Below are positions 16,379-64,000 of a stretch of 64,000 bases of DNA, piece after piece (position 1 is the first letter of the stretch; every line of letters begins with the position of its first letter). The stretch spans positions 264,502 to 328,501 of the forward strand of contig CAVYSN010000021.1 in assembly GCA_963771165.1 (NCBI GenBank), written 5' to 3'. The translations under genes and the position numbers were made by a program. The DNA comes from an uncultured bacterium (lineage in GTDB: Bacteria; Acidobacteriota; HRBIN11; JAKEFK01). The notes beneath the pieces are model-generated. The model was given only the letters and a program-made list of their open reading frames with translations, searched no databases and was not told the origin of the DNA.

Positions 16379-17039
16379 ATGCCGATTCGCGTTCAACTCT
16401 TCGCTGCATTCGCAGACTTTACCGGAAAACGGGAGATTGAATGGGAATACAGTCCCGGATTAACGTGTGAATATTTGTGGAAGGATCTCCAAATTCAGTA
16501 TCCTCGCGTGGCTCGCATTCCGGCGCTTTTTGCCATAGAGAATGAGTACGTTCCACCGGGCACAGAACTGAAGGACGGGGACTCTTTGATGATTTTTCCG
16601 CCCGTGAGCGGCGGGGCCGTTTCCTGTATCTATGAAGCGGCTTTATCTGTGGAGCGCGCGCTGGAAGCCATCCGTGATGAAAATGGCGGCGGAGAAGCAG
16701 TTTTTATCGGACGCGTAAGAAGGTGGAGCGAAGGGAAAGAAAATACGTCACCTTTTTTACGAATGTCATGTTGCAATGGCAGATAATGAAATTCACAGGA
16801 TCATCGGCGAAATGAAGCAGCGATGGCCACTTTGACAGGTCCATGTCGAACATCGAATTGGAAAGTTGGAAGTTGGAGATATTGCTGTCATAGTTGCCGT
16901 TTCTGCTGAACATCGAAAGGAAGCGATGGAAGCATGCCGTTATGGTATCGATGAGTTGAAACATCGCGTGCCGATCTGGAAGAAAGAAGTTTCCGAAGAC
17001 GGCGAAGAATGGATAGGAGCCTGCGATTATAAGTCATGA
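16379..17039 (+). pseudogene. fused molybdopterin synthase MoaD-MoaE (MoaX-like), disrupted by one frameshift and one in-frame TGA
   Basis: The MoaD part ends in PPVSGG and runs directly into MoaE. There is a +1 frame change in gggaaagaaaat (~16736-16744) and a TGA at 16833-16835 inside RWPL*QVHVEHRIG. The remainder (EHRKEAMEACRYGIDELKHRVPIWKKE) is conserved. Confidence 0.75.
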
Positions 17040-17099
17040 GCAATGAGTCATGGGCAATAAGACCAAACTGACACGGTCTCATGACTCATTGCTCATTGC
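17033..17099. repeat. Family-A hairpin repeat
   Basis: tcatgag caatgag tcatggg caataag acc ... ggt ctcatga ctcattg ctcattg. It contains the moaE stop codon (17037-17039). Confidence 0.85.
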
Positions 17100-17112
17100 T
17101 CCGGCACTGATT

Positions 17113-17274
17113 ATGAAGTGGACAGGTAAGATGCTGGAATTGATCGGGATGGTGGTTGTAGCCGCCGGATTTCTCTACGGCGTACAGTACAGTCTGGTTC
17201 GCTTTGAGCTTGGAGCTCTCGCGATCGGCAGCCTGATCTTCTATGTTGGATGGTTAATCGAGAAAAGAACATGA
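17113..17274 (+). CDS. small two-TM membrane protein
   Basis: 53 aa from ATG 17113 with two hydrophobic helices. Its stop overlaps the start of the next gene (ATGA at 17271-17274). Confidence 0.4.
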   Translation: MKWTGKMLELIGMVVVAAGFLYGVQYSLVRFELGALAIGSLIFYVGWLIEKRT

Positions 17275-18924
17275 AAAGGTTTACGATTTTTACTTCTGAT
17301 CCTCTTTTCGACGCGCTGCATTCGCAGCGCTCTGATGATCAAGCCCGTGCGCGTGCAAAACGGGAGTGGCCGCAGCGATCGATGTACCAGATCTCTCTGG
17401 AGATCGATCCACAAACAAAAAGTTATAAAGGACATCAAAAGGTTATTTTTACCAACAGGCAGAATCGATCCACAAATTACGCCGTTTTTTTCGTTTATCC
17501 GAACGATCCAGGTCTCACGAAATCAGAAAAACAATTCATGCGTGTCTCGAATATTACTGTCAATGGCGATGCCTGTCACGGCCGAAGAGAAGGGCCCCTA
17601 CCTGCGAATTCCTCTCGGAAAGGAACTTTTGCCCCGAAAAACGGTGACGATCGAATTGGACTTTGAAGCAACTGTACCCGATCAGAAACAAAGCAGCGAT
17701 CTGTTCAGCGAAGCGATGGAGGAACTAAGGAGATTGATGGATCCGAAGAGCCAGGCTGATACGGATTACGGTGTGTTCAGCTCGGGAAAAGATATTGTCA
17801 ATCTCGGACTCTGGTATCCAATCCTTTCAAAATACGACAAGGATGGATGGGATGAAGAAAAATATTCCGGCATTGGTGATGTAAGCTATTTCGATCCGGC
17901 AGATTTTCAAGTTTCGATCACGGCACCGGCTGATTACAAAGTGGTTACCACCGGATCCGAGATTAGCCGATCACCCGCAGGGAAAAGCAAATTTCTTTAC
18001 AAGATTGATGCTCCAATGGCGCGTGATTTTGAAGTTGAGCTCAGTCGTTTTTATTCGGAAGCGACCCGGTTGACCAAGGGACAACTATTCGGGCTTTCTT
18101 TCTGCCGCAACACAGTAAAAGCGGACAGTCGACTCTGGATAGCGCGACAAAAGCCTTCGAATATTTCGAAAAGTCGTTCGGACCTTATCCGTATACGGAG
18201 TTGGATATCGTTGAAGCTCCACTTTTTGGCGGAGCCGGAGGTGTGGAATTCCCCGGACTGGTGACAATCTCGTCCATGCTTTATCAGGAGGATGAGCAGA
18301 CGAAAGGTGACGATACTCTTAAGAATTTGCTCGCGAACAATCCCGCCTTCGATCAGCTGCTGGAATTCGTTGTTGTGCATGAAGTCGCTCATCAATGGTG
18401 GAACGCGGTCGTGGGAAGCAATTCGAAAAAGCATCCTTATATAGATGAAGCGATGGCCAACTATTCTGCGATTCTTGTACTTTGAGCATTATTACGGACG
18501 AAAAGCCGCAGAGCAGCAAATGGCCATGCAGATGAAGGTGAATTATCAAATGCATCGACTTCTGGGTGGAGAGGATAAACCTGTGCTTCTCCCTGCCTCT
18601 TCCTTTCAAGGTCCGCTGGAATACGCGGCTATCATTTACGGTAAAGGCGCTCTGTATTTTGATCGTCTGCGATCTTTGATGGGCCATACACCTTTCATGT
18701 CTGCGGTCAAGACCTATTACAATTCATTCTGGTTTGGCATTGCAGGGCCTGATGATTTTAAGAAGATTGCTCAGCGAAAATCACCGGGTAAAAGCAAGGC
18801 CATCGAAGACCTGTTTCAACGGTGGATGAATGGTCTGCACGGCGATGAGGATGTAGGCCCGGGAACACTTGATGGAGTCATGAAGACAGTGCTTTCGACA
18901 AACCAGGGATATTCCAACGGATAA
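17271..18924 (+). pseudogene. M1-family zinc aminopeptidase, at least 3 frameshifts
   Basis: HEVAHQWWN-x18-E gluzincin motif. Fragments in the track ORFs 17250, 17335, 18201 and 18445 join across frame changes near 17577, 18060 and 18475. A possible fourth near 18908 would extend the gene to 18973. Confidence 0.8.
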
Positions 18925-19078
18925 GCTGGACGATCTGTTAAAAGAACTCGATAAGATTTTGAAGGAACCCTAGCGGGAACGGAGGCTCGCTCTCCTTCTC
19001 AGGAGAGTAGGCTCTTCGAGTTTTTCAACAGCTCGACCCGCCCGATAAATTAGGTTTTTTTACTTAGGAGGAGACTTG

Positions 19079-22000
19079 ATGCGACGGTTCGCTATTGCTG
19101 TCTTGCTTTTACTTTCATCATTCGCGTTTGCCGAACTGGATCCCGGTTTGCTGGCGGGATTAAAAGCACGTTCGATTGGGCCTGCGACGATGAGTGGACG
19201 AATCGCAGCTATTGACGCGGTTCAATCCAATCCCGACATCATCTATGTAGGCGCTGCAACCGGAGGTGTTTGGAAATCGGAAAATGGCGGGATCACATGG
19301 ACCCCCATATTCGATGATCAAAAAGTCGCTGCGGTTGGCGCCGTCTCAATCTTTCAATCGAATCCCGACATTGTCTGGGTGGGCACCGGAGAAGGAAATG
19401 TTCGAAACAGCGCATCTGTCGGCAATGGTGTGTACAAGACAATGGATGGAGGCAGGACCTGGAGTTATCTGGGACTGGATGGAACGGAGCGAATCAGCAG
19501 AATCATTCTGCATCCTTCCGACCCGAATGTCGCATACGTGGCTGCGATGGGAAGAGAATGGGGTGAGAATGCGGAGCGTGGAGTTTTCAAGACAAACGAT
19601 GGCGGCAAGAACTGGACCAAAGTTTTGTATCTGAACGAGAAGAGTGGAGCTGCGGATCTTGTTATGGATCCCTCGAACCCGAATAAATTACTTGCCGCCA
19701 TGTGGGAATACAGAAGGTGGCCGTGGTTCTTTCGGTCGGGCGGCCCAGGCAGTGGTTTGCATGTGACGGTAGATGGGGGCCAGACCTGGTCCAAGCTGAC
19801 TGAAGAGGATGGCTTGCCGAAAGGGTTACTTGGAAGAATCGGTGTTGCTTTTTCACAATCCAATCCGCGAATCGTTTACGCAATCGTGGAAGCACAAAAA
19901 AGTGCCGTGATCCGTTCGGAAGATGGAGGCAAATCCTGGAAATCCATGAATGAAGAAGGGGATGTTGCAGGACGTCCTTTTTACTACGCCGATATTCGAG
20001 TCGATCCCGTTTTGACAAACCGGATTTATCGTTTGGAAAGTCTGGTCCGTGTGTCGAACGATGCCGGTAAATCGTGGGAAGTTTTGATTCCTTTTCGAGA
20101 TGTTCACCCGGATTATCACGCCTTGTGGATCAATCACAACGATCCAACGCACATGATCGTGGGAAATGATGGAGGTGTGTCGGTGAGTCATGATCGCGGA
20201 GTCACCTGGCGATTCGTCGGCAATCTTCCGGTCGCACAGTTCTACCATATTCGAGTTGACAACGAAGTTCCCTACAATATTTACGGCGGGCTTCAAGACA
20301 ATGGCTCCTGGCGAGGTCCGAGTGAGGTCTGGGAAAGCGGTGGAATCCGGAATCACCACTGGGTGATGGTCGGTTTCGGAGACGGATTCGACACCGCTCC
20401 AGATCCAAAAGATTCTTCGACCGGTTATTCGATGAGCCAGGAAGGTTACTTGATGCGCTTTAATGTAACCACAGGGGAACGTAAAGACATTCGTCCACCG
20501 GCTCCGGAAGGGCAGGCGCTGCGTTTCAACTGGAATGCAGGACTCGCTGTAGATCCGGAGGATGGCACTCTTTATTACGGGAGTCAGTACATTCACAAAT
20601 CAACCGATCGTGGAGATTCATGGACCATCATCAGCCCCGATCTAACTTCGAATAAACCTGAATGGCAAAAACAGTCACAGAGCGGGGGACTAACCCTGGA
20701 CGTAACCGGCGCGGAAAATTTTACAACCATCATCGCGATCGCGATTAGCCCGAAAGACCACAATACGATTTGGGTTGGCACAGACGATGGCCGTTTGCAC
20801 GTTACGCGCGATGGCGGAAAGAACTGGTCGAGCGTCGAACAGAACGTCAAAGGCGTTCCCGCCAATACATGGATCCCTCACATCGAACCTTCCAAGCACG
20901 ATGCAAATTCTGCCTTCGTTGTGTTTGATGATCACCGCCGTTCCAACTGGACTCCTTATGTTTATGAAACCAATGATTCCGGTAAAACATGGAAGAGCCT
21001 TGCAACCAGGGATCTCTGGGGATACGCGCTTTCGATTACACAGGACCCTGTAAAAAAAGATCTCCTTTTTCTTGGCACTGAATTCGGTCTATACGTCAGT
21101 CTGAACGGCGGCGGGAAATGGATGAAATGGACGCATGGCTTTCCTACAGTTTCTACTATGGACATGACCATCCATCCAAGAGAGCAGGATCTGGTTATTG
21201 CGACACATGGTCGTTCGGTTTACATCATTGATGACATCACGCCATTGCGAACACTGAGCGAAGAGATTTTGAAAAAAGCGGTTCACGTATTTGATGTTCC
21301 GGACTCGCATCATTATCAATCACAACCATTCGGCAGACCTCCATTTGCCGGACACACCGAATTCCGCGGTGAAAATGAGCCCTACGGCGCGCTCGTGACA
21401 TATTCACTGAACGCCCCTGATCTCCCGTATCCTGATCCAAAAAAAGAAAAGGAGCTCAAGGAACAGGAGAGACAGAAGCAGTATTCAGGCAAAGAGACCG
21501 AACAACTACTGATGGAAAAAGAAGATATCCCTGCGATGGCCCCGAAGAAAGAGGATGACAAAGGACCACAGGTTGATATTGAAGTGGCTGATGAACAGGG
21601 AAATGTGATCCGTCGCTTGAAAGGACCGGCCCGGCAAGGAATCAACCGTACCACCTGGGATTTACGGAGCGACCCCTTTCGCGAACCGCCACGCCCGCCG
21701 GAGCAACGGTTCTTTGAACCATCCGGTCCGGAAGTCTTGCCGGGTGTTTATACAGTTACTGTGAAGTTCAAGGACAATCAAGCCTCTTCCAAAGTGCGGG
21801 TCAGCGGGGATCCGCGCGACAAGATTTCGGATGCGGACCGCAAAGCAAATTGGGACACACTGGTGAAACTTGGAAAGATGCAGGAAGCAGCAACGGAAAC
21901 GATTGAGAAAATCCAGGGGACCAAAGCGGATGTGGATGTTGTGATGAGAAAAGTGGATATGCTGGACCGCACTTCGGGACTGAAGGAGCCGGACAAAAGC

Positions 22001-22305: not shown

Positions 22306-22516
22306 CGCGGAGCCAGACTGTTCAAAAACGATTGTAGCGCGGACTTCCAGTCCGCAAACGCCGTTTTCAGTTTGTCGACAGTGTGAAGGCGAAAGTATCT
22401 GGGACACCACAAAGAAGACTCCATCCTTAAGTTTTTGGGACAGTCTCCAGTGTTTCGCCCCGCGCTCGGCGGGCCGTCCGCGCCACCTTGTAGCGCCGGC
22501 GGCTCGCCGGCAGTAT
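22301..22516. repeat. Family-E composite repeat cluster
   Basis: tgtagcgcgg.. (twice), the gcggacttccagtccgc hairpin at 22339-22355, and tgtagcgccggcggctcgccggc. Confidence 0.7.
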
Positions 22517-22540
22517 AATTTTTCTGCTGGAGTAATTTTT

Positions 22541-24158: not shown

Positions 24159-24163
24159 TATAT

Positions 24164-25479: not shown

Positions 25480-26864
25480 TGCAACCTTCGATGTAGCGAT
25501 CGTCGGTGGTGGAATCAACGGGGCCTCCACCTATCATCAACTCTGTTCTCAAGGTTACAAGGTTCTATTAATAGACAAAGGTGATTTTTCCAGCGGAACG
25601 AGCCAGGCTTCGGCGATGATGGCCTGGGGAGGGTTGCTTTACCTCAGCTCGCTTGATTTTGCATCGGTCTGGCAATTATCTGTGAACCGGGACCGGCTGA
25701 TCCGCCACCTCTCCGCATCCGTAGCACCACGAAGGTTTCGTTATGTCTCAAAACAGAATAAAACAACTGTGCTCGCGGCGCTCTATTTCTACTGGTTGCT
25801 CGGTCTCGGCAGGAGGCGAATTCCTTATCAGGACAAGCATTTTTCGGAATCAAAATTCCTGAAGGAAGGTTTTTCCAGCGATTCGCTTGTTTATGAAGAA
25901 GCATGTTTGCAACCCTCGGATGCGCGTTTTGTATTGAACTGGATCCTTGCTTATCAGAATGAAATTCATGTGCCTTTGAATTACTGTGTTTTGCAGAATT
26001 GTCATTACGATTCGTCGCGGGGATTCTGGAAGCTTGAGCTGAAAGACACGCGTACGGATCGTGAGGCGCTTGCGCAGGCGAAGACTCATTGTGAATGCTG
26101 CCGGCACCTGGACCGATGAATTGAACGCACAGGCGCAAATCAAAACGCCGTACAAACACATATTTGGTAAGGGGGTGTTTCTCGGTTTTCATCGATTCGA
26201 AGGGCATGAACTGCCTCTGATTGTTGATGGAGGCAAACACACCCAATCGCTTTGCCTGATTCCATGGGGGCCGATTACTCTCTGGGGCCCTACAGAAACG
26301 AAATTGGATTCACTCGACTCTGCTTTTCAAGTGGAACCGGCAGATGTCAGCTTCTTGCTTCAGCGACTCAACCATCACACCAAAGTTCCGGTCCATGCAT
26401 CCGATATCGTTTCACTGCGTTGTGGAGTGCGACCTCTTGTGGTCGATCGTTGTTACGAAGATTCAGGACCGACATTGAAAATATCGAGACGGCATCGAGT
26501 CTTTGGAGATCCCGAACAACCGTGGATTAGCTTGTATGGCGGAAAGATAACGAGCTGCATGTCGCTCGCCGAGGATACTTTACGGAAAGTGCAACAACGG
26601 ATCGATTCTTCCGGTCGTTTGATGGAACAGGAATTACAACCGGATGAGATGTGTTGCACACTGGAAGATTATGTGCGCAGGAGAACGAATATATCCCAGT
26701 GGACTCCCCGCGGTGGTTTCGGTTTTCAAAATGAGCACCGCTCCGAGTTGTTGTCGATTGCGTTGCAGATCCATCGAGATCGGACGAAGGCTGAAGAAGA
26801 TTTGGATGAGTACGAAGCAAGGGTTCAAAGAGAATTTGATGCAGTGATTCAGGAGGTCGCATGA
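25442..26864 (+). pseudogene. FAD-dependent glycerol-3-phosphate dehydrogenase-like oxidoreductase (GlpA/GlpD family), one frameshift
   Basis: DVAIVGGGINGAS FAD fold. The track ORFs 25442 and 26061 join as ..REALAQAKT|LIVNAAGTWTDEL across a frame change near 26086. Confidence 0.8.
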
Positions 26865-39694: not shown

Positions 39695-40507
39695 ATGGCA
39701 CCCGCAGAGAACCAGCCGATCATTGAATTGCGGAATGTTTATTTCTCTGCCGGAACGTTCCAGATTTTGAAAAATGTGAGCCTGAAAGTGAATGCAGGAT
39801 CGGCGATAATGATCTGTGGGACCAGCGGAGCAGGGAAAAGCACTGTTATCAAGCTGATCCTTGGACTGATCAAAGCGGATAGCGGCGAAATTTATGTGGA
39901 TGGCGAGGAAATCAGCAATTATACGGAAGAAGAATTGATGCCGGTCCGGCAAAAACTTGGAATGGTATTTCAAGAAAGCGCTCTGTTCGATTCGCTGACA
40001 GTTCGCGAAAATGTTGGATACATATTGTACGAACGTGGCACTATGCCGGATGAGGAAGTTGATGCGCGCGTTGTGGAACTTCTAACTCTTGTTGAAATCG
40101 AGGAATTGATCGACAAAATGCCCGCTGAATTGAGCGGTGGGCAAAAGCGGAGGGTCGCGATTGCCCGTGCCATGGCCGCAAATCCCCCAATTCTTCTATA
40201 CGATGAGCCGACCGCTGGACTGGATCCGGTGACATCCAAAACCATCATCAAACAGATGATGAAGCTGCGGGATTTTCGTCACGTGACGTCCGTTCTTGTT
40301 TCTCATAAATTAGAAGATGGATTTCGGCTTTCTTACAATGTAGTCGAGCAACAGGGATCGGAAATCACAATGGTCAAAGACACAAGCGGGAAAAAACTGG
40401 AAGAAACCCGTTTTTATATGTTGCGGGAAGGCGAGGTTATATTTGAAGGGAACGCCGAAGAATTCCGTAATTCGCCCGATCCGTACATAAAAGAATTCTT
40501 AAATTGA
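39695..40507 (+). CDS. mlaF: MlaF-type ABC transporter ATP-binding protein
   Basis: GTSGAGKST Walker A, LSGGQKRR signature, LLYDEP Walker B. Confidence 0.9.
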   Translation: MAPAENQPIIELRNVYFSAGTFQILKNVSLKVNAGSAIMICGTSGAGKSTVIKLILGLIKADSGEIYVDGEEISNYTEEELMPVRQKLGMVFQESALFDSLTVRENVGYILYERGTMPDEEVDARVVELLTLVEIEELIDKMPAELSGGQKRRVAIARAMAANPPILLYDEPTAGLDPVTSKTIIKQMMKLRDFRHVTSVLVSHKLEDGFRLSYNVVEQQGSEITMVKDTSGKKLEETRFYMLREGEVIFEGNAEEFRNSPDPYIKEFLN

Positions 40508-40523
40508 CAGAGGGAGGCTACCA

Positions 40524-41576
40524 ATGGCATCCAAAAAAGAAATTGCATGGTCTGAGCTGAAAGTCGGAGCTCTCGTTATTATTTCGCTCGCGATTCTGTC
40601 GGCGATTGTTGTTCTGGTTCTTGGTGTGGAGTCTCCCTTTTCTAAACGTTACACTCTGTACACCTTTTTACCCAACATCGGCGGACTACGTCCGGATTCG
40701 CCCGTTTTGCTGGAGGGCGTAACGGCTGGAACAGTGGACGATTATGAGTTTGAATCGGGAGATCTGGAAAAAGGTGTCCGTATCAAAATGCGTATCCTGA
40801 AGAAGTATCAGAGTCGCATTCGTACCGATTCGATAGCGAAGCTGAGAAGTCTCGGTTTGTTAGGAGATAAGTATATAGAAATTACGCAGGGAACACCGAA
40901 TGGCCGCGTTCTGGAAGAAGGAGAGGTGATAACAGGCGCTCCCCCTGTGGATCTGGATGAAATGATTGCCAAAGGGACTCACACGTTCGACAACCTGAGC
41001 AGCACGGTGGATAACATCAAAGCGATTACTCAAGGGATACTGGAAGGGCAAGGAACTGTCGGAAGATTGATGCGGGATGATGCTCTCTACAAGAATGCAA
41101 ATGAATTGACCCGAAGACTGCATGAAGGAAAGGGTTCAATGGCTGCATTTATTAACGACGCAACGTTATACAGAGAGTTGAGCTCAACGGCTGTGAATTT
41201 ACGAAAGGTGAGTGCGCGCCTTGAAAAGGGTGAAGGGGCAGCCGGCAAACTTTTAGCCAGCAAGGAAGTCGGTGATTCGTTGCAATCGAGTATTCTGAAA
41301 TTGGAAGGAGTTCTGGCGAAGATGGAGAAGGGTGAAGGCACGCTTGGAAAACTGTCAAGCGATCCGGCACTTTACAACAATCTGAACAAGGTTACAGCCA
41401 ACCTGGGTCCGATCACAGATCAAATCGCCAAAGGGGAAGGTACAGTCGGTAAACTGCTTCGCGATAAGGAGCTATACGATAACACAAACAAATTGATGTC
41501 CGAAATGAGCCTGCTCGTGAAGGAAGTGCGTAAGGATCCGAAAAAATATCTCCGCATCAAGTTTAGTGTGTTCTGA
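40524..41576 (+). CDS. mlaD: MlaD/MCE-domain substrate-binding protein with repeated C-terminal helices
   Basis: N-terminal TM plus MCE domain, then five ~34-aa repeats (G[EQK]G[TA]xG[KR]L...LY). Confidence 0.85.
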   Translation: MASKKEIAWSELKVGALVIISLAILSAIVVLVLGVESPFSKRYTLYTFLPNIGGLRPDSPVLLEGVTAGTVDDYEFESGDLEKGVRIKMRILKKYQSRIRTDSIAKLRSLGLLGDKYIEITQGTPNGRVLEEGEVITGAPPVDLDEMIAKGTHTFDNLSSTVDNIKAITQGILEGQGTVGRLMRDDALYKNANELTRRLHEGKGSMAAFINDATLYRELSSTAVNLRKVSARLEKGEGAAGKLLASKEVGDSLQSSILKLEGVLAKMEKGEGTLGKLSSDPALYNNLNKVTANLGPITDQIAKGEGTVGKLLRDKELYDNTNKLMSEMSLLVKEVRKDPKKYLRIKFSVF

Positions 41577-41578
41577 CG

Positions 41579-41725
41579 ATGCTCTGGGTTGTTCTGGCTG
41601 TTTTACTTTTACTATGGGTGTTCCAGTTTGGCCTGGCTATCTCCGGATGGTGGATCACCCTGCTGATGGTTGGAACGTGGCTATTTTTCTTTAGCTCGCT
41701 TTTTGTTCGTCATGAACACCGCTGA
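41579..41725 (+). CDS. unlisted 48-aa hydrophobic ORF (lmo0937/DUF5670-like small membrane protein)
   Basis: MLWVVLAVLLLLWVFQFGLAISGWWITLLMVGTWLFFFSSLFVRHEHR. ATG lies 3 nt after the mlaD stop. Below the ORF-track size cutoff. Confidence 0.45.
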   Translation: MLWVVLAVLLLLWVFQFGLAISGWWITLLMVGTWLFFFSSLFVRHEHR

Positions 41726-42218
41726 TCCCCAATGGTACGCGATCTACACAAGGTCGCGGCATGAGAAAAGCGTCGCTTCAAAGCTGGAGGAAAAACGGAT
41801 AGAAGTCTTTCTGCCGCTTCGAAATGTCTTGAGGCGTTGGAAGGATCGACGCAAAGAAGTTGCAATGCCACTTTTCAGTAGTTACGTATTTGTTCGAATA
41901 CCTCAGTTACAGAGACTTTCTGTTCTTCAGACACCGGGAGTTGTGCAAATTCTCAGCGAGGGTAGCAAGCCGATGCCGATTCCTGAAGATCAGATTGCTG
42001 CGATTCAAAAACTGGTGCAGAGCGGTTTGGCCTACGATCCATATCCCTATTTGAAAGAAGGTGCGTTTGTAAGAGTGGTTCGTGGCCCGCTTCAGGGCGT
42101 TGAAGGTATTTTGCTGGAGAAGCGCAAGAAGCATCTTCTGGTTTTATCGGTTGATTTGATCCAACAATCTGCAGCTCTGCAGGTTGATATCACCGACACA
42201 GATGTGGCAGGAATGTGA
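41712..42218 (+). CDS. NusG paralogue (UpxY/RfaH-like operon-specific antiterminator)
   Basis: NGN domain (WYAIYTRSRHEK) plus KOW motif (GAFVRVVRGPLQGVEGIL), 168 aa from ATG 41712. Confidence 0.8.
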   Translation: MNTADPQWYAIYTRSRHEKSVASKLEEKRIEVFLPLRNVLRRWKDRRKEVAMPLFSSYVFVRIPQLQRLSVLQTPGVVQILSEGSKPMPIPEDQIAAIQKLVQSGLAYDPYPYLKEGAFVRVVRGPLQGVEGILLEKRKKHLLVLSVDLIQQSAALQVDITDTDVAGM

Positions 42219-42222
42219 TCCG

Positions 42223-44750
<2,528 letters not shown>

Positions 44751-44763
44751 CTCATAATCTGTT

Positions 44764-45411
44764 ATGTTTCCTGTAATACTGTTTGACCTCGATAACACTC
44801 TGTACACGGAAGAGAGCGGGATATTCGACTTGATCGATCAGCGGATGAGTGAATGGCTCATCACGAGGTTGCAAGTTCCTGAATCGGAAGTGATGGAGTT
44901 CCGCCGAAAATATTTCCTTCAGTACGGCACCACACTCAGAGGATTGATGCTACATCACCAGGTTGATCCCATGGATTTTTTACGCTTTGTTCATGACGTC
45001 CCGGTCAAGGATTTCCTGTCGATCGATCTCGAATTACGCCGCACGCTGGAAGAGGTCTCCAGCCGGAAAATCGTTTTCACAAACAGTGATGAAGCGCATG
45101 CGACACGGATCCTGGATGCGCTGGGTGTCCGGGATCTGTTCGAAAAAATATTCGATATCGAAGCCATGTCTTATGTGCCGAAACCGAATCAAGAAGCCTA
45201 CGAGGCTGTTCTGAACTATGCCCGTGTCGCTCCCTCCGATTGTCTGTTGATCGACGATATGACCCGTAACTTGAAGCCGGCGAAAATGTTGGGGATGCAC
45301 ACCGTGTTGATAGGCTCCGGGGAACCTCCCGAAGATTCTCATCACGCCATTGCGAATATCAAAGAGCTCAGCGCGCTTCTTCACAAGATTGCTCAACAGA
45401 TCGAAAAGTGA
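44764..45411 (+). CDS. HAD-superfamily hydrolase (pyrimidine 5'-nucleotidase-like)
   Basis: FDLDNTLY motif I, 215 aa. Confidence 0.78.
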   Translation: MFPVILFDLDNTLYTEESGIFDLIDQRMSEWLITRLQVPESEVMEFRRKYFLQYGTTLRGLMLHHQVDPMDFLRFVHDVPVKDFLSIDLELRRTLEEVSSRKIVFTNSDEAHATRILDALGVRDLFEKIFDIEAMSYVPKPNQEAYEAVLNYARVAPSDCLLIDDMTRNLKPAKMLGMHTVLIGSGEPPEDSHHAIANIKELSALLHKIAQQIEK

Positions 45412-45980
45412 AACGGGTCGACTTTGTCCGGACCCTTGGATGTCATATAATCGCCGCTATGGTAGACGAATCCTTCTTGAGGAACGTGTTTCTTTTCAAG
45501 AATCTCGATGAAACGGAGAATCGCCACATCTGTGCTCTCTTAAAAGAAGAGAATTTCAAACAAGGGGAGAAGATTGTTGAGGAGGGGAGGGCCGGCGACG
45601 CGTTATATGTAATTTGGTCCGGCAGAGTTCGCGTTAGCCGCCAGTTCGATAAAGAGTCCTTTGTGTTAACCGAGCTGGGTCCTTACGATTTCTTTGGTGA
45701 AATGGCACTGATAGACGACTTTCCCACATCAGCGACAGTGGATGCCATCGCAGACACGACCCTCTTTAAGATGAGCAGGGAAGATTTCAGATCGGTCACA
45801 TCCGTGAATAATGAGTTATCTTCGAAGATGTGGGAATCCGTTGCGCGTAGTCTAACGACGAGAATCCGGAAGACGGGGGATCTTGTCAAAATGTACTACG
45901 GATTGAGCAAGGCTCTCTGTGAAAATGAGCAGTTCCGGGAACTTTATACCTCCTGGAATTTCCACGTGCCAAAAGGCTAG
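45408..45980 (+). CDS. cyclic-nucleotide-binding domain protein (no DNA-binding domain seen)
   Basis: cNMP-binding beta-barrel (FFGEMALID). Alternative start at ATG 45459. Confidence 0.78.
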   Translation: MKRVDFVRTLGCHIIAAMVDESFLRNVFLFKNLDETENRHICALLKEENFKQGEKIVEEGRAGDALYVIWSGRVRVSRQFDKESFVLTELGPYDFFGEMALIDDFPTSATVDAIADTTLFKMSREDFRSVTSVNNELSSKMWESVARSLTTRIRKTGDLVKMYYGLSKALCENEQFRELYTSWNFHVPKG

Positions 45981-46093
45981 CAATAGTTACCGCGAAGATA
46001 AGAATATATCTACTTCGCTGACCCACACGGACAGATGGATTCATGAGTGTTTACGGACCGATGGTCCGTTTTCAAAGGGAGATCCAACTTACC

Positions 46094-46855
46094 TTACTTT
46101 TTATACTTGAGAACTACACAGGTAATATTGTCTTTTCCGCCTGCTTCATTCGCAAGCTGGATGAGAGCTTCGCAGATACCGGCCAAATCCCCTTCGGTTT
46201 TTTTCAGCACACCCGCCATCTCTTCAGGTTCCACCAAACCGTGCAAACCATCACTGCAAAGCAGGATCAAATCGCCATCGGCGAGTTGAACTTCCTGAAT
46301 GGGAAACTCAATATCCTCTTTTGAACCGATCGCTTTAGAGAGCACATTTTTCAGTGGAATCCTCTGCAACTGTTCTTCGGTAAATGCCCGCCGGACCCAT
46401 GTTTCATTCAGCCATACATCGTCTCTTGTCAGTAGCTTTACTTCCGTTTCCCGCCAGAGATAGGCCCTGGAATCTCCTACTGAAACGAGGGAAGCAACAT
46501 CATCCGAAATGGCTACAGCTACGATCGTCGTTCCCATGCCTGTATATTCCTGATGGGAATCGGCAAGCTGCCAGATCTTGTGGTTCGCCAGCTTTACGGC
46601 AGTTCGTAGACGATTGGCATCAAAACTCATTTTCGGATCGATACCGAAAGGCCAGGTCAGTTCCCGTTCCTGGTGAGAACGAACCATGAAGCTCTCGACC
46701 GTTTTGGCTGCCGTCGAAGATGCCACATCTCCGGCATTGTGCCCGCCCATCCCATCCGCCACCATGTAGAGGTGGATGTCGCGGTTAACAACATGCGAGT
46801 CCTCGTTCCGCTGTCGCTTCTTTCCAATGTCTGTGGCGCCGTAAGCTGCTATCAT
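46094..46855 (-). CDS. PP2C-family Ser/Thr phosphatase (Stp1/PrpC-like)
   Basis: TDIGKKRQRNEDS and ADGMGGH motifs, 253 aa. Confidence 0.9.
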   Translation of the reverse strand: MIAAYGATDIGKKRQRNEDSHVVNRDIHLYMVADGMGGHNAGDVASSTAAKTVESFMVRSHQERELTWPFGIDPKMSFDANRLRTAVKLANHKIWQLADSHQEYTGMGTTIVAVAISDDVASLVSVGDSRAYLWRETEVKLLTRDDVWLNETWVRRAFTEEQLQRIPLKNVLSKAIGSKEDIEFPIQEVQLADGDLILLCSDGLHGLVEPEEMAGVLKKTEGDLAGICEALIQLANEAGGKDNITCVVLKYKK

Positions 46856-46956
46856 GCGTCCTCACATCATAACACACGTGGGGACGAACTTGTGTCTCTC
46901 TCCTTTCATCGGATTTCATTGCTCAAACTGTGCGACTCCTGTATCTTAATGGCTAT

Positions 46957-49317
46957 ATGGATGAGACTGCTGTTATTACGGCTGGCGTCCCTGCCGGAAG
47001 GAAGAAAGTCTTTAAAAATGTTCTGATCACGCTTCTGTATTTCTTCAGCATTTCGATTGGGTCTCTCTTTGGCTTTTTCCTATCTTATTTGAATCGGCTC
47101 CCGCAGGTGGAACAAAGCGAAACGTTTCGGCCCAATGTCCCGGGCCAGGTTTATTCTTCCGATGGAAAACTCATTGAGGAGTTTGCTGTTGAGAAAAGGA
47201 TTTTGCTCCGTTCGATTGACGAAATCTCGCCGTATTTAAAGAATGCTGTGATTGCAGTGGAAGACGCCCATTTCTATCAGCACCCGGGTGTCGATCCGTG
47301 GGGAATTCTGCGCGCGTTGTATGTGAACTTAAAGACCGGACGTGTCGTGGAAGGTGGAAGTACGCTTACTCAACAACTGGCAAAATTGCTGTTTCTCAGG
47401 CCGGAAAAGACAATGGAACGGAAGATCCAGGAAGCCATGTTGGCCGTCCAACTGGAACGCAGGTATACAAAAGACGAAGTGTTTCTTCTCTATGCAAATC
47501 AAATTTATCTTGGGCATGGGATTTACGGTATTCAAGCCGCATCAAACTACTACTACGGTAAGTCCGCTAAAGAATTGAATCTGGAAGAAGCCGCCTTGAT
47601 CGCTGCGCTGCCCAAAGCGCCTGAGAACTTTTCACCTTATACTCATCCGGAACAGGCGATGAAGCGAAGAAACCATGTTCTTGAGAGGATGGCCGAAGAA
47701 AAGTTTATTTCCAAGCAGGACGCAGAAGAGGCCAAAACGAAGCCTTTATCGGTGAAAACCGTTGTCCCTAAAATTTCTGTGGCCCCTTACTTTACAGAGG
47801 AGATTCGGAAATACCTCGAAACGAAATATGGATTTTCGGGAATCTATGAGAGTGGTCTCCAAATTTACTCAACCCTCGTTCCGGAAATGCAAGTTGCTGC
47901 AGAGAAGGCTTTGGACAAAGGTGTGCGAGCATTGGATAAACGGCGCGGATTCCGGAAAATAACTACGACAGTGAAGGAGCAGGAAATAGAGAATTTTCGA
48001 TCACCGGATTGGTCTAAGTCGTTTGAACCCGGAATGATCGTGCGGGGGGTCGTCACGGAGGTAACTCCGAAGCGCGTTACGGTGAAGATTGGAAAGGAGA
48101 CGGTGAATCTTTTCCCGGAAGGTTGGGGCTGGACCGGCAGGAAAGACGCTGCATCGATTTTTGTGCGGGGCACCGTTACAGATTTTAAAATTCGGGGAAT
48201 GGAAAATGGCAAGATTCAATCGATTTCGGTGGATCAGGCGCCGATTGTTGATGGGGCCCTGGTTGCGATGGATATTAAGACGGGAAAGATCCAGGCGTTG
48301 ATCGGAGGATCCGATTTCGGAACCAAGAAGTTCGATCGTGCAACCCAGGCTTACCGCCAAACAGGATCCGCTTTTAAACCTTTCATTTATGCAGCAGCCT
48401 TTGAACGTGGATTCACTCCATCGGATGTGATGGTTGACGCTCCTTTGTCCTATTATGACGCCTGGTCAAAGAAAACATGGTCACCGCAAAATTATACCGG
48501 CGATTTCCTGGGTCCCATGACTTTGCGTCGAGCCCTGGAACTCTCAAGAAATACGATTGCAGTAAGACTTTTGGAGCAAATCGGCGTGAAATATGCAATT
48601 CGTTACATCGATAATTTTGAAGTAGCCAATAATATGCAGCCCTATTTGCCTCTTGCGTTAGGGGCCAGCGAAGCCACATTAATCGGCATGGTGCGAGCGT
48701 TTGGCGCTTTTTCCAACCAGGGCCTCATGATGCGTCCCTATCTGGTGGAAAAGGTTTTGGATCGCGATGGAAATCTACTGGAACAAAATCTCCCTTCAGC
48801 AAAAGAGGTTATGCGTGCAGATGTGGCCTATCTAATGACGGATGTGTTACAGGGGGTCATCAGGCGTGGCACGGCGGTGAAGGCGAAGAAGTTGAAAAGG
48901 CCCTTAGCCGGGAAAACAGGGACCACCGACGATTGCACGGACGCATGGTTCATCGGCTACACTCCGAGCCTCGTTGTGGGTGTGTGGGTTGGTTACGACG
49001 AAAAGAAATCCCTGGGTAAGAAGGAAACCGGAGCTGAGGCTGCGTTGCCGATTTGGATCGATTTTATGGAAGTGGTTCTCAAAGATAAGCCGGTTGAAGA
49101 ATTTCAGGCCACTTCAAACATTGTAACGATTGCTATCGATCGCCATTCAGGCCTTCGCGCAACACCAGACTGTACAGACGTTATCCTGGAATCCTTTGTT
49201 GCCGGAACGGAACCTAAACAGTATTGCGGTCCCGAACACCATGGGGAAATCCCGCTTCAGCCTGAGGAGCGAGAATCCATGCAAATCGTCACCCCCCCAC
49301 CCGAAGAACAGAATTAA
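46957..49317 (+). CDS. mrcA: class A penicillin-binding protein 1A (transglycosylase + transpeptidase)
   Basis: EDAHFYQH and GGSTLTQQ glycosyltransferase motifs; SAFKP and KTGTT transpeptidase motifs. A GTG at 46930 is an alternative start. Confidence 0.9.
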   Translation: MDETAVITAGVPAGRKKVFKNVLITLLYFFSISIGSLFGFFLSYLNRLPQVEQSETFRPNVPGQVYSSDGKLIEEFAVEKRILLRSIDEISPYLKNAVIAVEDAHFYQHPGVDPWGILRALYVNLKTGRVVEGGSTLTQQLAKLLFLRPEKTMERKIQEAMLAVQLERRYTKDEVFLLYANQIYLGHGIYGIQAASNYYYGKSAKELNLEEAALIAALPKAPENFSPYTHPEQAMKRRNHVLERMAEEKFISKQDAEEAKTKPLSVKTVVPKISVAPYFTEEIRKYLETKYGFSGIYESGLQIYSTLVPEMQVAAEKALDKGVRALDKRRGFRKITTTVKEQEIENFRSPDWSKSFEPGMIVRGVVTEVTPKRVTVKIGKETVNLFPEGWGWTGRKDAASIFVRGTVTDFKIRGMENGKIQSISVDQAPIVDGALVAMDIKTGKIQALIGGSDFGTKKFDRATQAYRQTGSAFKPFIYAAAFERGFTPSDVMVDAPLSYYDAWSKKTWSPQNYTGDFLGPMTLRRALELSRNTIAVRLLEQIGVKYAIRYIDNFEVANNMQPYLPLALGASEATLIGMVRAFGAFSNQGLMMRPYLVEKVLDRDGNLLEQNLPSAKEVMRADVAYLMTDVLQGVIRRGTAVKAKKLKRPLAGKTGTTDDCTDAWFIGYTPSLVVGVWVGYDEKKSLGKKETGAEAALPIWIDFMEVVLKDKPVEEFQATSNIVTIAIDRHSGLRATPDCTDVILESFVAGTEPKQYCGPEHHGEIPLQPEERESMQIVTPPPEEQN

Positions 49318-49377
49318 CGCAAAAACGCAAAGAAAAGCAATGATTTTCGCTTTGCGGGCTTTGCGATATTGCGTTAA
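49314..49377. repeat. Family-B hairpin repeat (octamer units ACGCAAAG / CTTTGCGT)
   Basis: ttaacgcaaaaacgcaaag ... ctttgcgggctttgcgatattgcgttaa. It contains the PBP1A TAA stop (49315-49317). Confidence 0.85.
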
Positions 49378-49419
49378 ACAGCTAGCGTTTTTTCTTTTTG
49401 GCTGGTTTCGCTTTCTTCT

Positions 49420-50040
49420 TTAGAGCGGGTTTGCTTTTTCTGTCGGCTTCGGCTTCGCTTTTGCCTTTACCGGTTTTGCGACTTTTTTCACGGCAGGCTT
49501 GGTTTTCGCCGCCGGTTTTGGCTTCTGTGGTTTTGCCACTGGAGGAGGCGCGACCTTCTTCCTGCCCGGCTTAACAGGAAGTGGCACGACTCTGGGCTTC
49601 GCTTTCTTAGCATCCTCTACTGCCTGTTTGATCTTCGGTCGTTCGACGGCCCGGATCGCTTCAAGGACTGCCTGTTTGACCTTTTTCATCGGACGAGGAG
49701 ATTCGTCGGTCAGGCGCGATTTTTTCTTCTTATACGAGCGGTTGATGATCTCAAGGAGCTTCTCAGCCTCTTCCCAACTCGTTAATTGTGCCTGACGCCA
49801 ACCCGCATCATGAAGCATTTCAACAGGATGCGGATGGACAAAGGGTTGATTCTCTGTGGAGGTCAGGTCTTTTGGAGCCGGCTTGAACTCGACAAAGATG
49901 ATCTCATGACTGCGGTTCATGCCGAGAGTACAGATCGTCTGCCCGTCACTCTTGATAAAGATCCGCTCAGGTGAACTGCTGCTCTCGTTGTCCGCCGTAA
50001 GTTCGTCTTTTAGCTTGATATAGATTTCTTCGGCCGTCAT
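49420..50040 (-). CDS. hypothetical protein with Lys/Pro/Ala-rich histone-H1-like C-terminal tail
   Basis: 206 aa from MTAEEIY. The last ~70 aa are KPxxKK/PKPAAK low-complexity basic repeats. Confidence 0.6.
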   Translation of the reverse strand: MTAEEIYIKLKDELTADNESSSSPERIFIKSDGQTICTLGMNRSHEIIFVEFKPAPKDLTSTENQPFVHPHPVEMLHDAGWRQAQLTSWEEAEKLLEIINRSYKKKKSRLTDESPRPMKKVKQAVLEAIRAVERPKIKQAVEDAKKAKPRVVPLPVKPGRKKVAPPPVAKPQKPKPAAKTKPAVKKVAKPVKAKAKPKPTEKANPL

Positions 50041-50126
50041 TTTGCATAAAAATATACACGGATTGCTACAATTAATCAATAAGAATGATAAATGTAGTAT
50101 TATTTTAGTCCATCGAAGATTAGCTT

Positions 50127-60616: not shown

Positions 60617-62243
60617 GTGCTGCGTTTTGCATTGACCTGTGAACAGATTTCAAAGACAACAAGAAAGCTTGAGAAGGAAAAAATCCTTGCAGGTTATTTG
60701 CGCGAACTCGCAGACGAAGATCTGGCAATTGCCTGCTATCTTTATGACCGGTTATCCGTTCGCTTTAAAAGATCAAAGGGTAACGAACGTAGGCTATGCT
60801 GCAATCCGTGATGCCTTGGAAGACGTGGAGCGCGGCTCAACGGACAGGCTCGGCCCTCCTGCTGTTGCGAACAGGAGATCTTGGTTCAGCCATCGAAGAA
60901 TTATTTCAACAAAAGAAACGCGAGCCTGTCTCTGACCTTAAAACATGTTAGATCGTACTACGAGAAGCTTACTACAATTTCGAGTCAACGTGAAAAACGG
61001 GCCATTCTTAGCGAAATGCTTGTCGAGAGCCACACCTCTGGAGGCCAAAGTATTTGATCAAGGTTCTGGGGAACGGGATGAGGATCGGGCTGCAGGAAGG
61101 TCTGGTGGAATCATCGATCGCAAAGGCTTTCGAGCAGCCGCTTGCGAAAGTGCAGTATGCCAACATGTTGCTGGGAGATATCGGCGAAACCGCTATCCTT
61201 GCCCGCTATTCGCGCCTTGACGATGCGCGCATGAAGCTTCTTCATCCGATCAAGCCGATGCTGGCTTCCGTGGAGGAGGATCCGGAAAAGATCCTCGAAT
61301 CGATGGAAGCGCGTGGTTTGGCAGAAGACAAATATGACGGTATTCGCGCACAGGTCCACAAGGAAGATCAGGAGATAAAGATTTTTTCGCGCGATCTGGA
61401 CGATATCACTCATTCTTTTCCTGATGTTGTTGAGAAAATGATAACGCTCCCTCATTCCTTCTTGATGGATGGAGAAATTGTTCCCTACAAAGAGGAACGG
61501 ATTCTGAGTTTCGGCTCTGTTGCAAAATCGTCTTGGCAGGAAAGCGCTTTCCAGTGCAATGTTGGAGCAGATTCCATGTCGTTATTTCGCTTTTGATCTT
61601 GTTATTTCTGGATGAGAATCTGCTGATCGACTTGCCGCTTCAGGAAAGGCGTAATCAATTGTTCAGGCTTCAAAACCTGTATTCCGCGCCATTTTCAATT
61701 TCAGAACAGCGAACCATCCGGACGGTGGATGAACTCGAAGCCTGTTTTGACGCTTCAAGAGGCCGCAACAATGAGGGGCTTGTGATTAAGCATCCCGATT
61801 CGCCGTACAAGCCTGGAAAAAGGGGTAAACAATGGCTCAAGCTGAAACGTGCGCTTGTGACACTTGATGTGGTTGTTGTCGCCGCTGAATACGGGCATGG
61901 CAAACGGGCCGGACTTCTTTCCGATTACACATTCTCAGTGCAGCATCAGGGGAAACTTCTCACAATCGGGAAAGCGTATTCCGGAATTACGGACAAGGAA
62001 CTGTTTCAATTGTCGGAATTATTTCACAAAATTTCCATTCGTGATGAAGGATTCATGCATTTCGTGCCGCCGCAAGTTGTGTTCGAAGTCACTTTTGACA
62101 GAATCAATCGCAGTGATCGCCACACAAGCGGTTTTGCTTTGCGTTTTCCGCGAATTAAAAGCATTCGATGGGACAAAAAACCTGAAGAGATCGATACGCT
62201 TGAGACAGTGGAGAAGCTTTACCAAGCCCAGGAACAAAACTGA
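60617..62243 (+). pseudogene. ATP-dependent DNA ligase (Lig1/Cdc9-like), about 7 frameshifts
   Basis: Adenylation motif EDKYDGIRAQVH plus an OB-domain and conserved C-terminus. The segments sit in alternating frames, with junctions near 60744, 60830, 60933, 61020, 61050, 61516 and 61598. Confidence 0.8.
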
Positions 62244-62283
62244 GAATTCAATAACCGAGTCCGTATCGATCGGGTAATTTTGT

Positions 62284-62679
62284 TCACAAGAACGTGTGAC
62301 CTTGATGTACGTCACGAATCACGCGGATCAATTTTTCACGAGCTGTGTCTTTTAGAAGATAGGCGGCGGCACCGGCCTGCATACTCTTTTGTATATCTTC
62401 AGGGAAATCGTAAGCGCTCAACATAATGAAGCGAGCATCCGGATGTTGTCTGCGAATTGCGTGAACGGCATCGATGCCATTCATTCCCGGCATACTCAAA
62501 TCCATGAGGGTCACATCCGGAGCAATTTTTTCGTAAGAGGTCACGGCGATCTGGCCATTGGCGGCCTCGGCTACGACTTGCATGTCCGGTTGGATGTTGA
62601 TGAGCCGGGTCATCGCCTCGCGAACAAGGCTATGGTTATCGACGACGAGAATCCTAATTGGCTTTGTTTCTTGCATCAC
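62284..62679 (-). CDS. stand-alone response-regulator receiver domain (NarL-type receiver without HTH)
   Basis: RILVVDNH...DVTLMDLSMPGMNG, 131 aa. There is no room for an output domain before the next gene. Confidence 0.8.
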   Translation of the reverse strand: MMQETKPIRILVVDNHSLVREAMTRLINIQPDMQVVAEAANGQIAVTSYEKIAPDVTLMDLSMPGMNGIDAVHAIRRQHPDARFIMLSAYDFPEDIQKSMQAGAAAYLLKDTAREKLIRVIRDVHQGHTFL

Positions 62680-62803
62680 AAATTTAACCCGCGCTAAGAA
62701 TATACAAAGCAGCGGCGTACTTCATGTCTCGCAGGTTGGAATCAGAATACCCAAGCTAGTGCAGCGGCAGGTCTAACTTAAGTTATAGAAAAATCTCTAA
62801 CCA

Positions 62804-62884
62804 GGCTTTAACGCAAAGACGCCACGACGCAAAGATTTTAAAAATATTATTTCTTTGCGGCGTTGCATCTTTGCGTTAAAGGGC
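62804..62884. repeat. Family-B hairpin repeat
   Basis: acgcaaag acgccacg acgcaaag ... ctttgcgg cgttgcat ctttgcgt. It abuts the stop of the LuxR-type regulator. Confidence 0.85.
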
Positions 62885-63517
62885 TATTCCAGGCGGACGA
62901 GGCCGCGTTTCAGGGCCACAGAAACGGCCTGAGTGCGGTCTGTGACGTTGAGTTTGGAAAGGATATTGTTGACATGGGATTTGACGGTGCCCTCGGATAT
63001 TCCGAGCTGATCTCCAATTTCCTTGTTGCTGTTGCCTTTCACTATCAGTTTCAGCACTTCAAATTCACGTGAGGTCAGCTCATTGCCGCCGACCCTTTCC
63101 GCTAAACGGGTGGCAACGTTGGGCAGGTATGCAGCGTTCGCCGTTATGCACTCGAAGGATTGCGGAGATCAATTCATTGCGTGGGGAATCTTTCAATAAG
63201 TAACCGCGGGCGCCGGCTTGAATGGCCTTATAGATATCTTCTTCGTGATCAAAACTGCTCAATATGATGATTCGTGCGTTCGTGAATTCATTTCGAATGC
63301 TTTCGATTGCCTGTGCGCCGCTCATGTCGGGCATTCGCATATCCATGAGGGTGATGTCGGGACGAACTTTGCGATACAACTGCATTGCTTCTTGTGCGGA
63401 TCCCGCTTCACCAACCAGTTCCATCTTTTTATCGGTGCTGATAATTCTAGCAATGCCTTCGCGAACGACGGGATGGTCGTCCACAATCATCACTCGTATC
63501 AGTTCGGATTTCGACAT
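62884..63517 (-). pseudogene. NarL/FixJ (LuxR-HTH) response regulator, one frameshift
   Basis: Receiver domain (track ORF 63080..63517) followed in another frame by ..[43 protein letters not shown]. Junction near 63130. Confidence 0.8.
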
Positions 63518-63593
63518 ATTAAGCCTTCATGATATCCGGAACGATCTAATCTATTCCATTCTATACAAACGGCTGGTTCTGTAAAATGGTTAG

Positions 63594-64000
63594 ATGAATA
63601 TTTCCACAGCAACGCAGCCCGGGCAGGTGGCAGCCTTCCATGAGATCAAGTGGCAATGGCGCAAAAAACTTGTCGAAGGAAAATTTTACGCGGAAGGGGA
63701 GCAGGTCATTTGTCGCTTACTCCAATCGTCGGTTGAAATCCTGTCGATGTTGATGACACCCGAGTATCTTGAGCAGTGGAAAGACGTGATTGCCTTACGA
63801 AAAGATTCGATCGGCACCATCTGGATTACGGAAAAGAACTGGATGGAAAGAAATACAGGACAAAAATTGAATCAAGGATGTTTAGCCATAGGGAGGATTC
63901 CTGAGCCGCCACCGCTGCAAAGTTTTCTTGACTGCAGGTTCTTGCTGCTTTTTAGCTCTGGATGGACTCGATCATGCAGTCAACGTTGGAGCCATCGTGC
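63594..64000 (+). pseudogene. TrmH/SpoU-family RNA methyltransferase, 5' part (runs off window), one frameshift
   Basis: MNISTATQ... with a substrate-binding N-domain. After the T5 run near 63948 the conserved LDGLDHAVNVGAIV motif is in the next frame. Confidence 0.6.

Follow-up and report, generated by a model that had tools for sequence, protein, structure and literature searches.

Frame disruptions in a 64-kb window of an uncultured bacterial genome are very probably assembly consensus errors

The frame disruptions found in the window (the whole stretch of DNA analyzed, 64 kb in length) are, judging from the sequence, very probably errors in the assembly consensus and not mutations of the organism. 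The lesions themselves exist, are insertions, occur genome-wide, fall in essential genes and are independent of selection. Consensus errors are favored over decay because (i) essential genes are hit, (ii) the spectrum is one of insertions, (iii) the rate is genome-wide, and (iv) the lesions have no link to conservation.

Lesions in the window were mapped by aligning ortholog proteins of a same-genus genome (G002) with the window DNA in a frameshift-aware dynamic program, using tblastn frames as backup. This approach placed about 30 frame shifts and one TGA in 12 genes, the same 12 genes, with near-identical counts, in which the initial annotation had noticed about 28 disruptions. About 26 of the 30 shifts are net +1 single-base insertions and about four are other shifts, the one stop coming in addition, and in the junction alignments with G002 perfectly conserved residues flank the single-base insertions. 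The earlier description of one-nucleotide indels separating conserved segments, with a single nonsense codon, was borne out. The lesions are as follows.

16379-17027, plus strand: MoaD-MoaE fusion gene; net +1 insertion at 16733, frame 2 to 3
16833..16835, plus strand: in-frame TGA in the MoaD-MoaE gene; substitution-type lesion, Arg in the G002 ortholog
17250-18967, plus strand: M1 peptidase; +1 at 17580, -1/+2 at 18080, +1 at 18474, +1 at 18907
19094-22302, plus strand: BNR/sortilin-like gene; -1/+2 at 22236, 22 codons from the gene end
25442-26864, plus strand: GlpD-like FAD oxidoreductase; one net +1 within 26061..26119, frame 2 to 3
28085-29233, minus strand: phosphoesterase; 28358 (+1), 28974 (+2), 29066 (+1) and, weakly supported, 29205 (+2)
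50127-50674, plus strand: isochorismatase; +1 at 50166 and 50257
50733-53134, minus strand: Zn-metalloprotease; +1 at 52458 and 53080
53138-54271, minus strand: M20 peptidase; +1 at 53417, 53556 and 53659, the original frame being regained after all three
54744-55538, plus strand: Memo-like gene; +1 at 54885, 55192 and 55250
60617-62240, plus strand: ATP-dependent DNA ligase; seven +1, at 60737, 60858, 60931, 61025, 61047, 61513 and 61598
62887-63517, minus strand: LuxR-type response regulator; +1 at 63118, with 92% identity to G002 before and after it
63594 to window end, plus strand: TrmH/SpoU-like methyltransferase; net +1 near 63900 (63890..63940)

At the 16733 junction of the MoaD-MoaE gene, for instance, the flanks GRVRRWSE and GKKIRHL are conserved with G002. 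Selenocysteine was rejected as an explanation of the TGA at 16833, which aligns with an Arg of G002 and not with Cys or Sec. The M1 peptidase runs through tblastn frames 3>1>3>1>2; three further shifts that the alignment placed in its signal peptide (17289-17333) were taken for noise, as were shifts at 43025 (the sat/cysC N-terminus) and 49442 (the tail of a Lys-rich protein). In the BNR/sortilin-like gene the shift at 22236 removes the stop, so that the ORF continues into a thiolase-like gene (22541-23701). The GlpD-like shift could be narrowed only to where its two ORF pieces overlap; the first piece contains positions 1-80 and the second positions 196-316 of the Pfam DAO domain. In the TrmH/SpoU-like gene, a six-frame reading alone located the lesion, with the conserved LALDG...N.GAI motif resuming in the next frame. 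The window also contains an IS110 element and many repeats, as well as an M48 peptidase gene that is reduced to a remnant, mostly missing relative to G002.

Two long blocks consist of genes that aligned with G002 in a single frame.

1..16373, no strand assigned: clean block; OPT, purA, hutH, hutU, dcd, SpoIIE-like, sigma54 activator, recG, DUF2520-like and HD phosphohydrolase genes
29811..50079, no strand assigned: clean block; ICDH, MDH, sucCD, cyclase, IS110, GATase, MlaEFD, NusG-like, CysQ, sat/cysC, HAD, cNMP-binding, PP2C, PBP1A and Lys-rich protein genes

The second block matches the segment from 29.5 to 50.1 kb that the initial annotation had called clean, and the genes that it had named as intact (OPT, hutU, sigma54 activator, recG, PBP1A, sat/cysC, SppA) gave full-length single-frame alignments, as did about 30 others, wherever an ortholog was available for comparison. 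Its statement that the lesions are non-random also stood. The largest lesion-free gaps in the window measure 20,961 and 16,733 nt; the maximum gap has P = 2e-4, the two gaps jointly were reached in 0 of 200,000 simulations, and the coefficient of variation of the gaps between lesions is 2.24, vs 0.95 under the null. In the genome-wide sample described below, a test on genes with zero hits gave P = 2.5e-4, but neither a length-weighted chi-square for clustering (P = 0.26) nor the co-occurrence of hit genes as neighbors (P = 0.18) was significant. Clustering, real in the window, is thus no more than moderate across the genome. What clusters is the stretch of DNA rather than the class of gene, since adjacent genes on both strands are affected together; short genes within dirty patches, such as FabZ, are spared simply by their length.

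An unbiased sample of the genome (184 genes, 194.5 kb, 15 contigs), compared with a clean relative, contained 0.53 shifts per kb, and 34% of its genes were hit. The window, with about 30 shifts in about 55 kb of coding sequence, matches this rate; the figure of about 0.5 per kb from which the initial annotation had argued is simply the genome-wide average. By class, the sample contained 90 '+1' shifts, 13 '+2' shifts and 14 stops, compared with six of each in a 118-kb control in which clean relatives were compared with each other. Only the '+1' class exceeds the control, by about ninefold, and stops remain at background (0.072 per kb in the sample vs 0.051 per kb in the control). A separate scan of paralogs yielded 220 sites, 76% of them net +1. 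One-base insertions make up about 85-90% of lesions. The genome, assembled from a metagenome and belonging to an uncultured member of the Acidobacteriota, totals 4.45 Mb in 22 long contigs with a CheckM completeness of 73%, a low value for such contigs that is consistent with broken marker genes; we did not take it by itself as proof, since 4.45 Mb is also below the sizes of the same-genus genomes.

The -1/+2 shifts and the stops are no more frequent than between clean genomes, so the insertion process does not explain them. A few lesions could be genuine, among them the TGA found at 16833, the -1 shifts and the near-absence of the M48 peptidase gene, which truly is a remnant. On such grounds one might propose a mixture, in which most disruptions are artefacts and a minority (the MoaD-MoaE TGA, three or four -1 shifts, and the ORF fusions that lack a stop) are real changes in the lineage. 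However, most of the background seen in the control is noise of the alignments, and no individual event is marked as real; we consider this mixture unlikely.

Genuine pseudogenization, one of two readings offered by the initial annotation, would have relaxed selection or genome decay producing repeated frameshifts in dispensable genes. The window alone lends it some color: the genes hit are mostly accessory (peptidases, the ATP-dependent ligase, isochorismatase), IS110 and the repeats are present, and most of the M48 peptidase gene known from G002 is missing. Essential single-copy genes elsewhere (rpoB, rpoC, secY, rpsH, rplD, rplA), however, bear the same lesions. The sole rpoB (contig C22, 201745-206102) encodes a protein 95% identical to G002 RpoB, yet contains two +1 insertions with identical flanks; two lesions were likewise found in each of rpoC, rplD, ribBA and ribD, and one in each of secY, rpsH and rplA. 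Further, the lesion rate is unrelated to conservation, being 0.39, 0.58, 0.53 and 0.34 shifts per kb across bins of identity, and genes with and without lesions do not differ in mean identity (0.681 vs 0.679, P = 0.78). The spectrum also argues against decay. Bacterial mutation is said (by Mira, Ochman and Moran, in 2001) to be deletion-biased, with pseudogenes gathering nonsense codons, whereas here one-base insertions predominate overwhelmingly and neither stops nor deletions are in excess. Finally, the M20 peptidase, despite three lesions, has a terminal branch similar to that of its sister and not lengthened (root-to-tip 0.93 vs a median of 1.0), and the residues flanking the lesions are perfectly conserved. 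The case that the initial annotation had itself begun to make against pseudogenization is thereby strengthened, and with rpoB, rpoC, secY and ribosomal protein genes among those hit we regard that reading as refuted, leaving it only a very small probability.

The DNA ligase was set aside as a test of essentiality, since it is an ATP-dependent (KYDGxR) enzyme and not LigA. The NAD-dependent LigA is the essential ligase, and its gene, on contig C22, looks intact. Orthologs of the ATP-dependent ligase are intact, at 543-553 aa, in five related genomes; in a sixth, the match covered no more than 55 residues, close to the start of a contig. Homologs of the M20 peptidase are similarly intact, the closest 30 being 378 aa long in all but four cases (range 362-379 aa); the read-through M20 protein is at most 83% identical to its closest homologs. 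A search for a record of the same species, with the intact FabZ that sits between two broken genes as the query, found none.

The inserted bases have little in common. For 57 of 125 genome-wide lesions every candidate extra base lies outside any homopolymer; in 12 all candidate bases lie in runs of at least two, and in none in runs of at least four. The composition of the extra base is even. The locally poor consensus that the initial annotation had offered as its second reading is supported as such, but not the homopolymer or A/T-run origin attached to it, for most lesions lie in neither A/T runs nor homopolymers. The typical Nanopore homopolymer-error model, which predicts mostly deletions in runs, was likewise rejected, insertions being dominant and mostly outside homopolymers. 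The sets of candidate bases and the codon positions were also used to compare random insertion with the writing of both alleles of a SNP in series, but synonymous degeneracy confounds this comparison.

That nearly all shifts are +1, in genes whose encoded proteins are otherwise intact and conserved, might instead suggest recoding, with +1 ribosomal frameshifting or quadruplet decoding rendering the genes functional as written. No recoding or slippery-site motif was found at the shift sites of the 125 lesions: beside the even composition of the extra base, CGG occurs at 16 of 125 sites, no enrichment over its 11% background, and a stop in the old frame follows at a median of 66 nt downstream, the distance expected by chance. 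None of the shifts recurs in the orthologs of six related genomes or in some 30 homologs from metagenomes, and the density of lesions follows patches of the DNA, not particular codons. We therefore consider recoding extremely improbable. Hardly any credence, too, attaches to the proposal that the extra bases are real and tolerated, even in rpoB, through frequent +1 frameshifting or four-base decoding in this Acidobacteriota lineage; a milder variant has the patches of insertion errors marking strain-variable, SNP-dense segments, and the error map would then also chart how the source population varies on a fine scale (its microdiversity).

Under the favored reading of consensus errors, each kb of coding sequence would on average contain about 0.4-0.5 spurious inserted bases throughout the genome, which would amount to some 1,500-2,000 insertions in total and affect about one gene in three. 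Each error would be a lone extra base, of no particular identity and in most cases not in a homopolymer, with deletions, substitutions and stops at background. Their density would vary regionally, clean blocks of 15-25 kb alternating with patches of one to two errors per kb, and this variation would produce the apparent concentration of lesions in a few genes of the 64-kb window. As to cause, we suspect a consensus built from insertion-prone single-molecule reads, either at low depth or with co-existing strains collapsed, the patchiness perhaps mirroring local depth or microdiversity.

As artefacts, the disruptions hold low biological interest, and their importance lies in the use of the genome, which is a species representative in which about one gene in three appears to be split by spurious insertions. 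Relatives should be consulted before relying on its gene calls, on counts of pseudogenes, on completeness estimates, on ORFs that are fused or truncated, or on any 'novel domain architecture'. Because consensus quality is itself patchy, clustering of lesions within a window is no evidence of selection. Builders of polishing tools may find it of interest that the errors are insertions of non-repeated bases and not homopolymer deletions.

Decaying genomes, such as those of Mycobacterium leprae, Shigella and recent symbionts, resemble the window in having several disruptions per gene, IS elements and repeats. Unlike it, they spare essential genes and show deletions, nonsense codons and raised divergence. 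A closer likeness is to long-read assemblies, which contain gene-fragmenting indels (PMC12007338). As in assemblies of Nanopore or PacBio CLR reads (IDEEL-type tests, Kastor; PMC12007338), single-base indels here are assembly-wide, about a third of genes are split irrespective of function, and marker completeness is lowered while contiguity is high. A Nanopore-only MAG catalogue is the source of three relatives, and those of its MAGs with low coverage had reduced coding density (PMC12313526). The spectrum nevertheless departs from these assemblies: the best-described long-read artefact consists of false deletions, mostly in homopolymers of 2-8 bases (PMC12007338), whereas about 90% of the present lesions would be false insertions, in most cases of a base that differs from those beside it, with none requiring a run of at least four. 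An insertion-dominated, homopolymer-avoiding spectrum is atypical by that standard. The mosaic assembly of Trypanosoma brucei offers a further parallel, in which collapsed allelic variants introduce indel errors, and apparent frameshifts, caused by nearby variants that misalign reads, vanish with phasing (PMC8445201). The organism there is a diploid eukaryote, and reads confirmed the errors, whereas for the present genome a mixture of strains in the metagenome is what we infer. Variant density in T. brucei is very uneven along chromosomes (PMC8445201), and such unevenness would yield patchy errors like those described here.

Proteins of the same-genus relative G002, a 72-kb contig of which is largely collinear with the window, were aligned to the window DNA using tblastn and our own protein-to-DNA aligner, which permits frame shifts. 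These alignments found the same 12 genes to be broken that the initial annotation had named (MoaD-MoaE, M1 peptidase, BNR, GlpD-like, phosphoesterase, isochorismatase, Zn-protease, M20 peptidase, Memo-like, DNA ligase, LuxR regulator and TrmH), with approximately 30 shifts and one in-frame TGA.

Frame disruptions in individual window genes
ATP-dependent DNA ligase: exactly seven shifts
M1 peptidase: four shifts
M20 peptidase: three shifts
Memo-like gene: three shifts
Isochorismatase: two shifts
Zn-protease: two shifts
GlpD-like gene: split, as judged from Pfam coordinates

All genes previously read as intact and having an available orthologue yielded full-length, single-frame alignments, as did about 30 further window genes, and no lesion was supported by orthologue alignment in 1-16,373 or 29,811-50,079. 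About 26 of the 30 lesions are net +1 (i.e., one extra base), while three or four belong to the -1/+2 class. The residues on either side of each junction are identical or conserved, none is missing, and the protein alignment is continuous across it, as exemplified by an M1 junction (HPYIDEAMANYSAI and LYFEHYYGRKAAEQ on its two sides). The sole in-frame TGA aligns with arginine, and was therefore rejected as a selenocysteine site. Neither a tRNA nor any Rfam family was found within the 64-kb window.

The lesions are not special to these 12 genes. The window spans C21:264502-328501 of a genome that comprises 4.45 Mb in 22 contigs at 49% GC, with an estimated completeness of 73% and contamination of 3.8%, and whose relatives are uncultured Acidobacteriota. 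A whole-genome, paralogue-based scan located frame shifts at 220 sites, distributed over 19 contigs; 76% were net +1. In motif searches, the invariant RpoB and RpoC motifs fell in ORFs of only 138 and 768 aa, respectively. For rpoB this genome has a single match, broken up over several frames, while the gene is one ORF in G002 (1,487 aa) and in the relative G006 (1,455 aa); against the G002 protein the match is 95% identical (1382/1451), with exactly two +1 insertions. Similarly, rpoC is divided into three, both tyrS and purN are split, and lesions were found in secY, rpsH, rplD (twice), rplA, ribBA and ribD. An unbiased sample was drawn from G006, a clean relative: every ORF in 400 kb of its sequence was aligned to its best locus here.

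Lesions in the unbiased sample and in a control among relatives
ORFs of G006 contig C3 against this genome: 184 genes, 194.5 kb aligned; 90 +1, 13 +2, 14 stops
Control among G002, G004 and G006: 112 genes, 118 kb aligned; 6 +1, 6 +2, 6 stops

In this sample 34% of the genes were affected, at a rate (0.53/kb) equal to that of the window. The excess over the control, approximately ninefold, was limited to the +1 class; deletions and stops did not rise above method noise.

Mutation in bacteria is biased towards deletions, and true pseudogenes accumulate nonsense codons and substitutions. The initial annotation had offered pseudogenization of dispensable genes as one of two readings; it fails, as essential and dispensable genes are both broken, by an insertion-only spectrum and with no difference in identity. 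Mean identity to G006 was 0.681 in genes with lesions and 0.679 in those without (P = 0.78), and the +1 rate per kb was 0.39, 0.58, 0.53 and 0.34 at <60%, 60-70%, 70-80% and >80% identity, respectively. In a tree of 35 homologues, the terminal branch of the read-through M20 peptidase (three lesions) resembles that of its sister, with a root-to-tip distance of 0.93 (median, 1.0); all but four of its nearest 30 homologues are 378 aa long, and the rest 362-379 aa. Ligase orthologues are intact (543-553 aa) in five related genomes; in a sixth, the only match is short and lies close to where a contig begins. Thus, selection has no part in the lesion distribution, and a spectrum of some 90% single-base insertions and nothing else, shared by essential and dispensable genes, is not a product of evolution.

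The initial annotation's claim of non-random placement was borne out. The largest lesion-free gaps among the 30 lesions in 64 kb were 20,961 nt (P = 2e-4) and 16,733 nt, which occurred jointly in 0 of 200,000 simulations, and the CV of lesion spacings was 2.24, as against 0.95 under the null. Lesions are also over-dispersed genome-wide: 132 sampled genes lacked a +1 lesion, where 119.6 +/- 3.5 were expected from gene lengths (P = 2.5e-4). Neither a length-weighted chi-square (P = 0.26) nor neighbour co-occurrence (P = 0.18) was significant genome-wide. Clean runs extend up to about 25 kb (e.g., C22:208-232 kb), and dense patches include a 2.9-kb gene with seven lesions (C17:44.3-47.2 kb). In the window, dirty patches span adjacent genes of both strands and short genes within them escape, indicating that the unit of clustering is the DNA, not the gene class.

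The genome-wide +1 excess and the broken essential genes support the other reading, a locally poor consensus, and the disruptions are very probably artefacts of assembly that hold little biological interest. Consensus quality would vary by region, leaving patchy lesions, either where read depth is locally low or where reads from co-existing strains were collapsed; such collapsing is known to introduce indel errors close to clusters of variants, and variant density is itself very uneven (PMC8445201). Extrapolation (0.4-0.5/kb over ~3.9 Mb of coding sequence) implies ~1,500-2,000 insertions genome-wide, and it is this number that gives the artefact its practical weight: caution is needed with other findings in this genome that depend on ORF boundaries, fusions or truncations.

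Several other loci were noted.

Other features of the window
1886-2578: gap of ~700 nt; ~70 N-terminal M48 peptidase residues match weakly (50% identity)
19076-23704 (+): 1,542-aa ORF, not a single gene
26861-28093: intact DegT-type aminotransferase (410 aa)
35344-36609 (-): intact 421-aa IS110-family transposase, within a clean block
55602-57011 (-): one 469-aa ORF, class IV aminotransferase plus CoA-binding domain

In the 1,542-aa ORF, a shift at 22236 deletes the stop of the BNR/sortilin-like gene, and the frame stays open into a thiolase-like gene. The aminotransferase and CoA-binding domain are two adjacent genes in G004 and G006, in different frames with stops between; the tail is poorly conserved, and their fusion is probably a further lesion near the end of the first gene, or a lost stop. 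G002 has an M48 peptidase gene (434-462 aa) between the OPT transporter and purA, and what is left here looks like genuine gene loss or a remnant, unlike the insertion artefacts. The DegT-type aminotransferase is two ORFs in G002, a short-read relative (L010:18580-19520, i.e., G002:C10:38580-39520), so that this relative, too, must contain one lesion or more. The IS110-family transposase is missing from the collinear G002 contig. Elsewhere, three ORFs carry GroEL motifs, C3:83083-83859 (259 aa), C10:162412-164100 (563 aa) and C14:391299-392312 (338 aa); of these, the one on C10 alone is full length, and that on C3 carries a +1 lesion at 83115. The paralogue scan also contained -1 changes between 80-96% identical paralogues (C10:251410, C11:34520, C14:4531, C14:5753, C9:11216, C21:227892 and C18:49502). 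These may be transposases of multi-copy insertion sequences that use a programmed -1 shift, in which case they are real features that inflate the -1 class of that scan.

For 125 supported +1 lesions, we determined which single-base removal best restored the orthologue protein. No motif common to the lesion sites was found, the old frame stops a median of 66 nt downstream, matching chance, and CGG is not enriched at the sites, so there is no support for programmed frameshifting or four-base decoding. The removed base is spread evenly over A, C, G and T. The suggestion of homopolymer errors proved wrong: in 57 of the 125 lesions every candidate base differs from both neighbours, and in only 12 do all candidates lie within a run of at least 2. 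The relatives G003, G004 and G006 are Nanopore-only MAGs from the Microflora Danica long-read catalogue (PMC12313526). Classical homopolymer-length error in Nanopore assemblies is mostly false deletion (PMC12007338), whereas here insertions dominate, largely outside runs, and none requires a run of 4 or more, which rules out that class of error.
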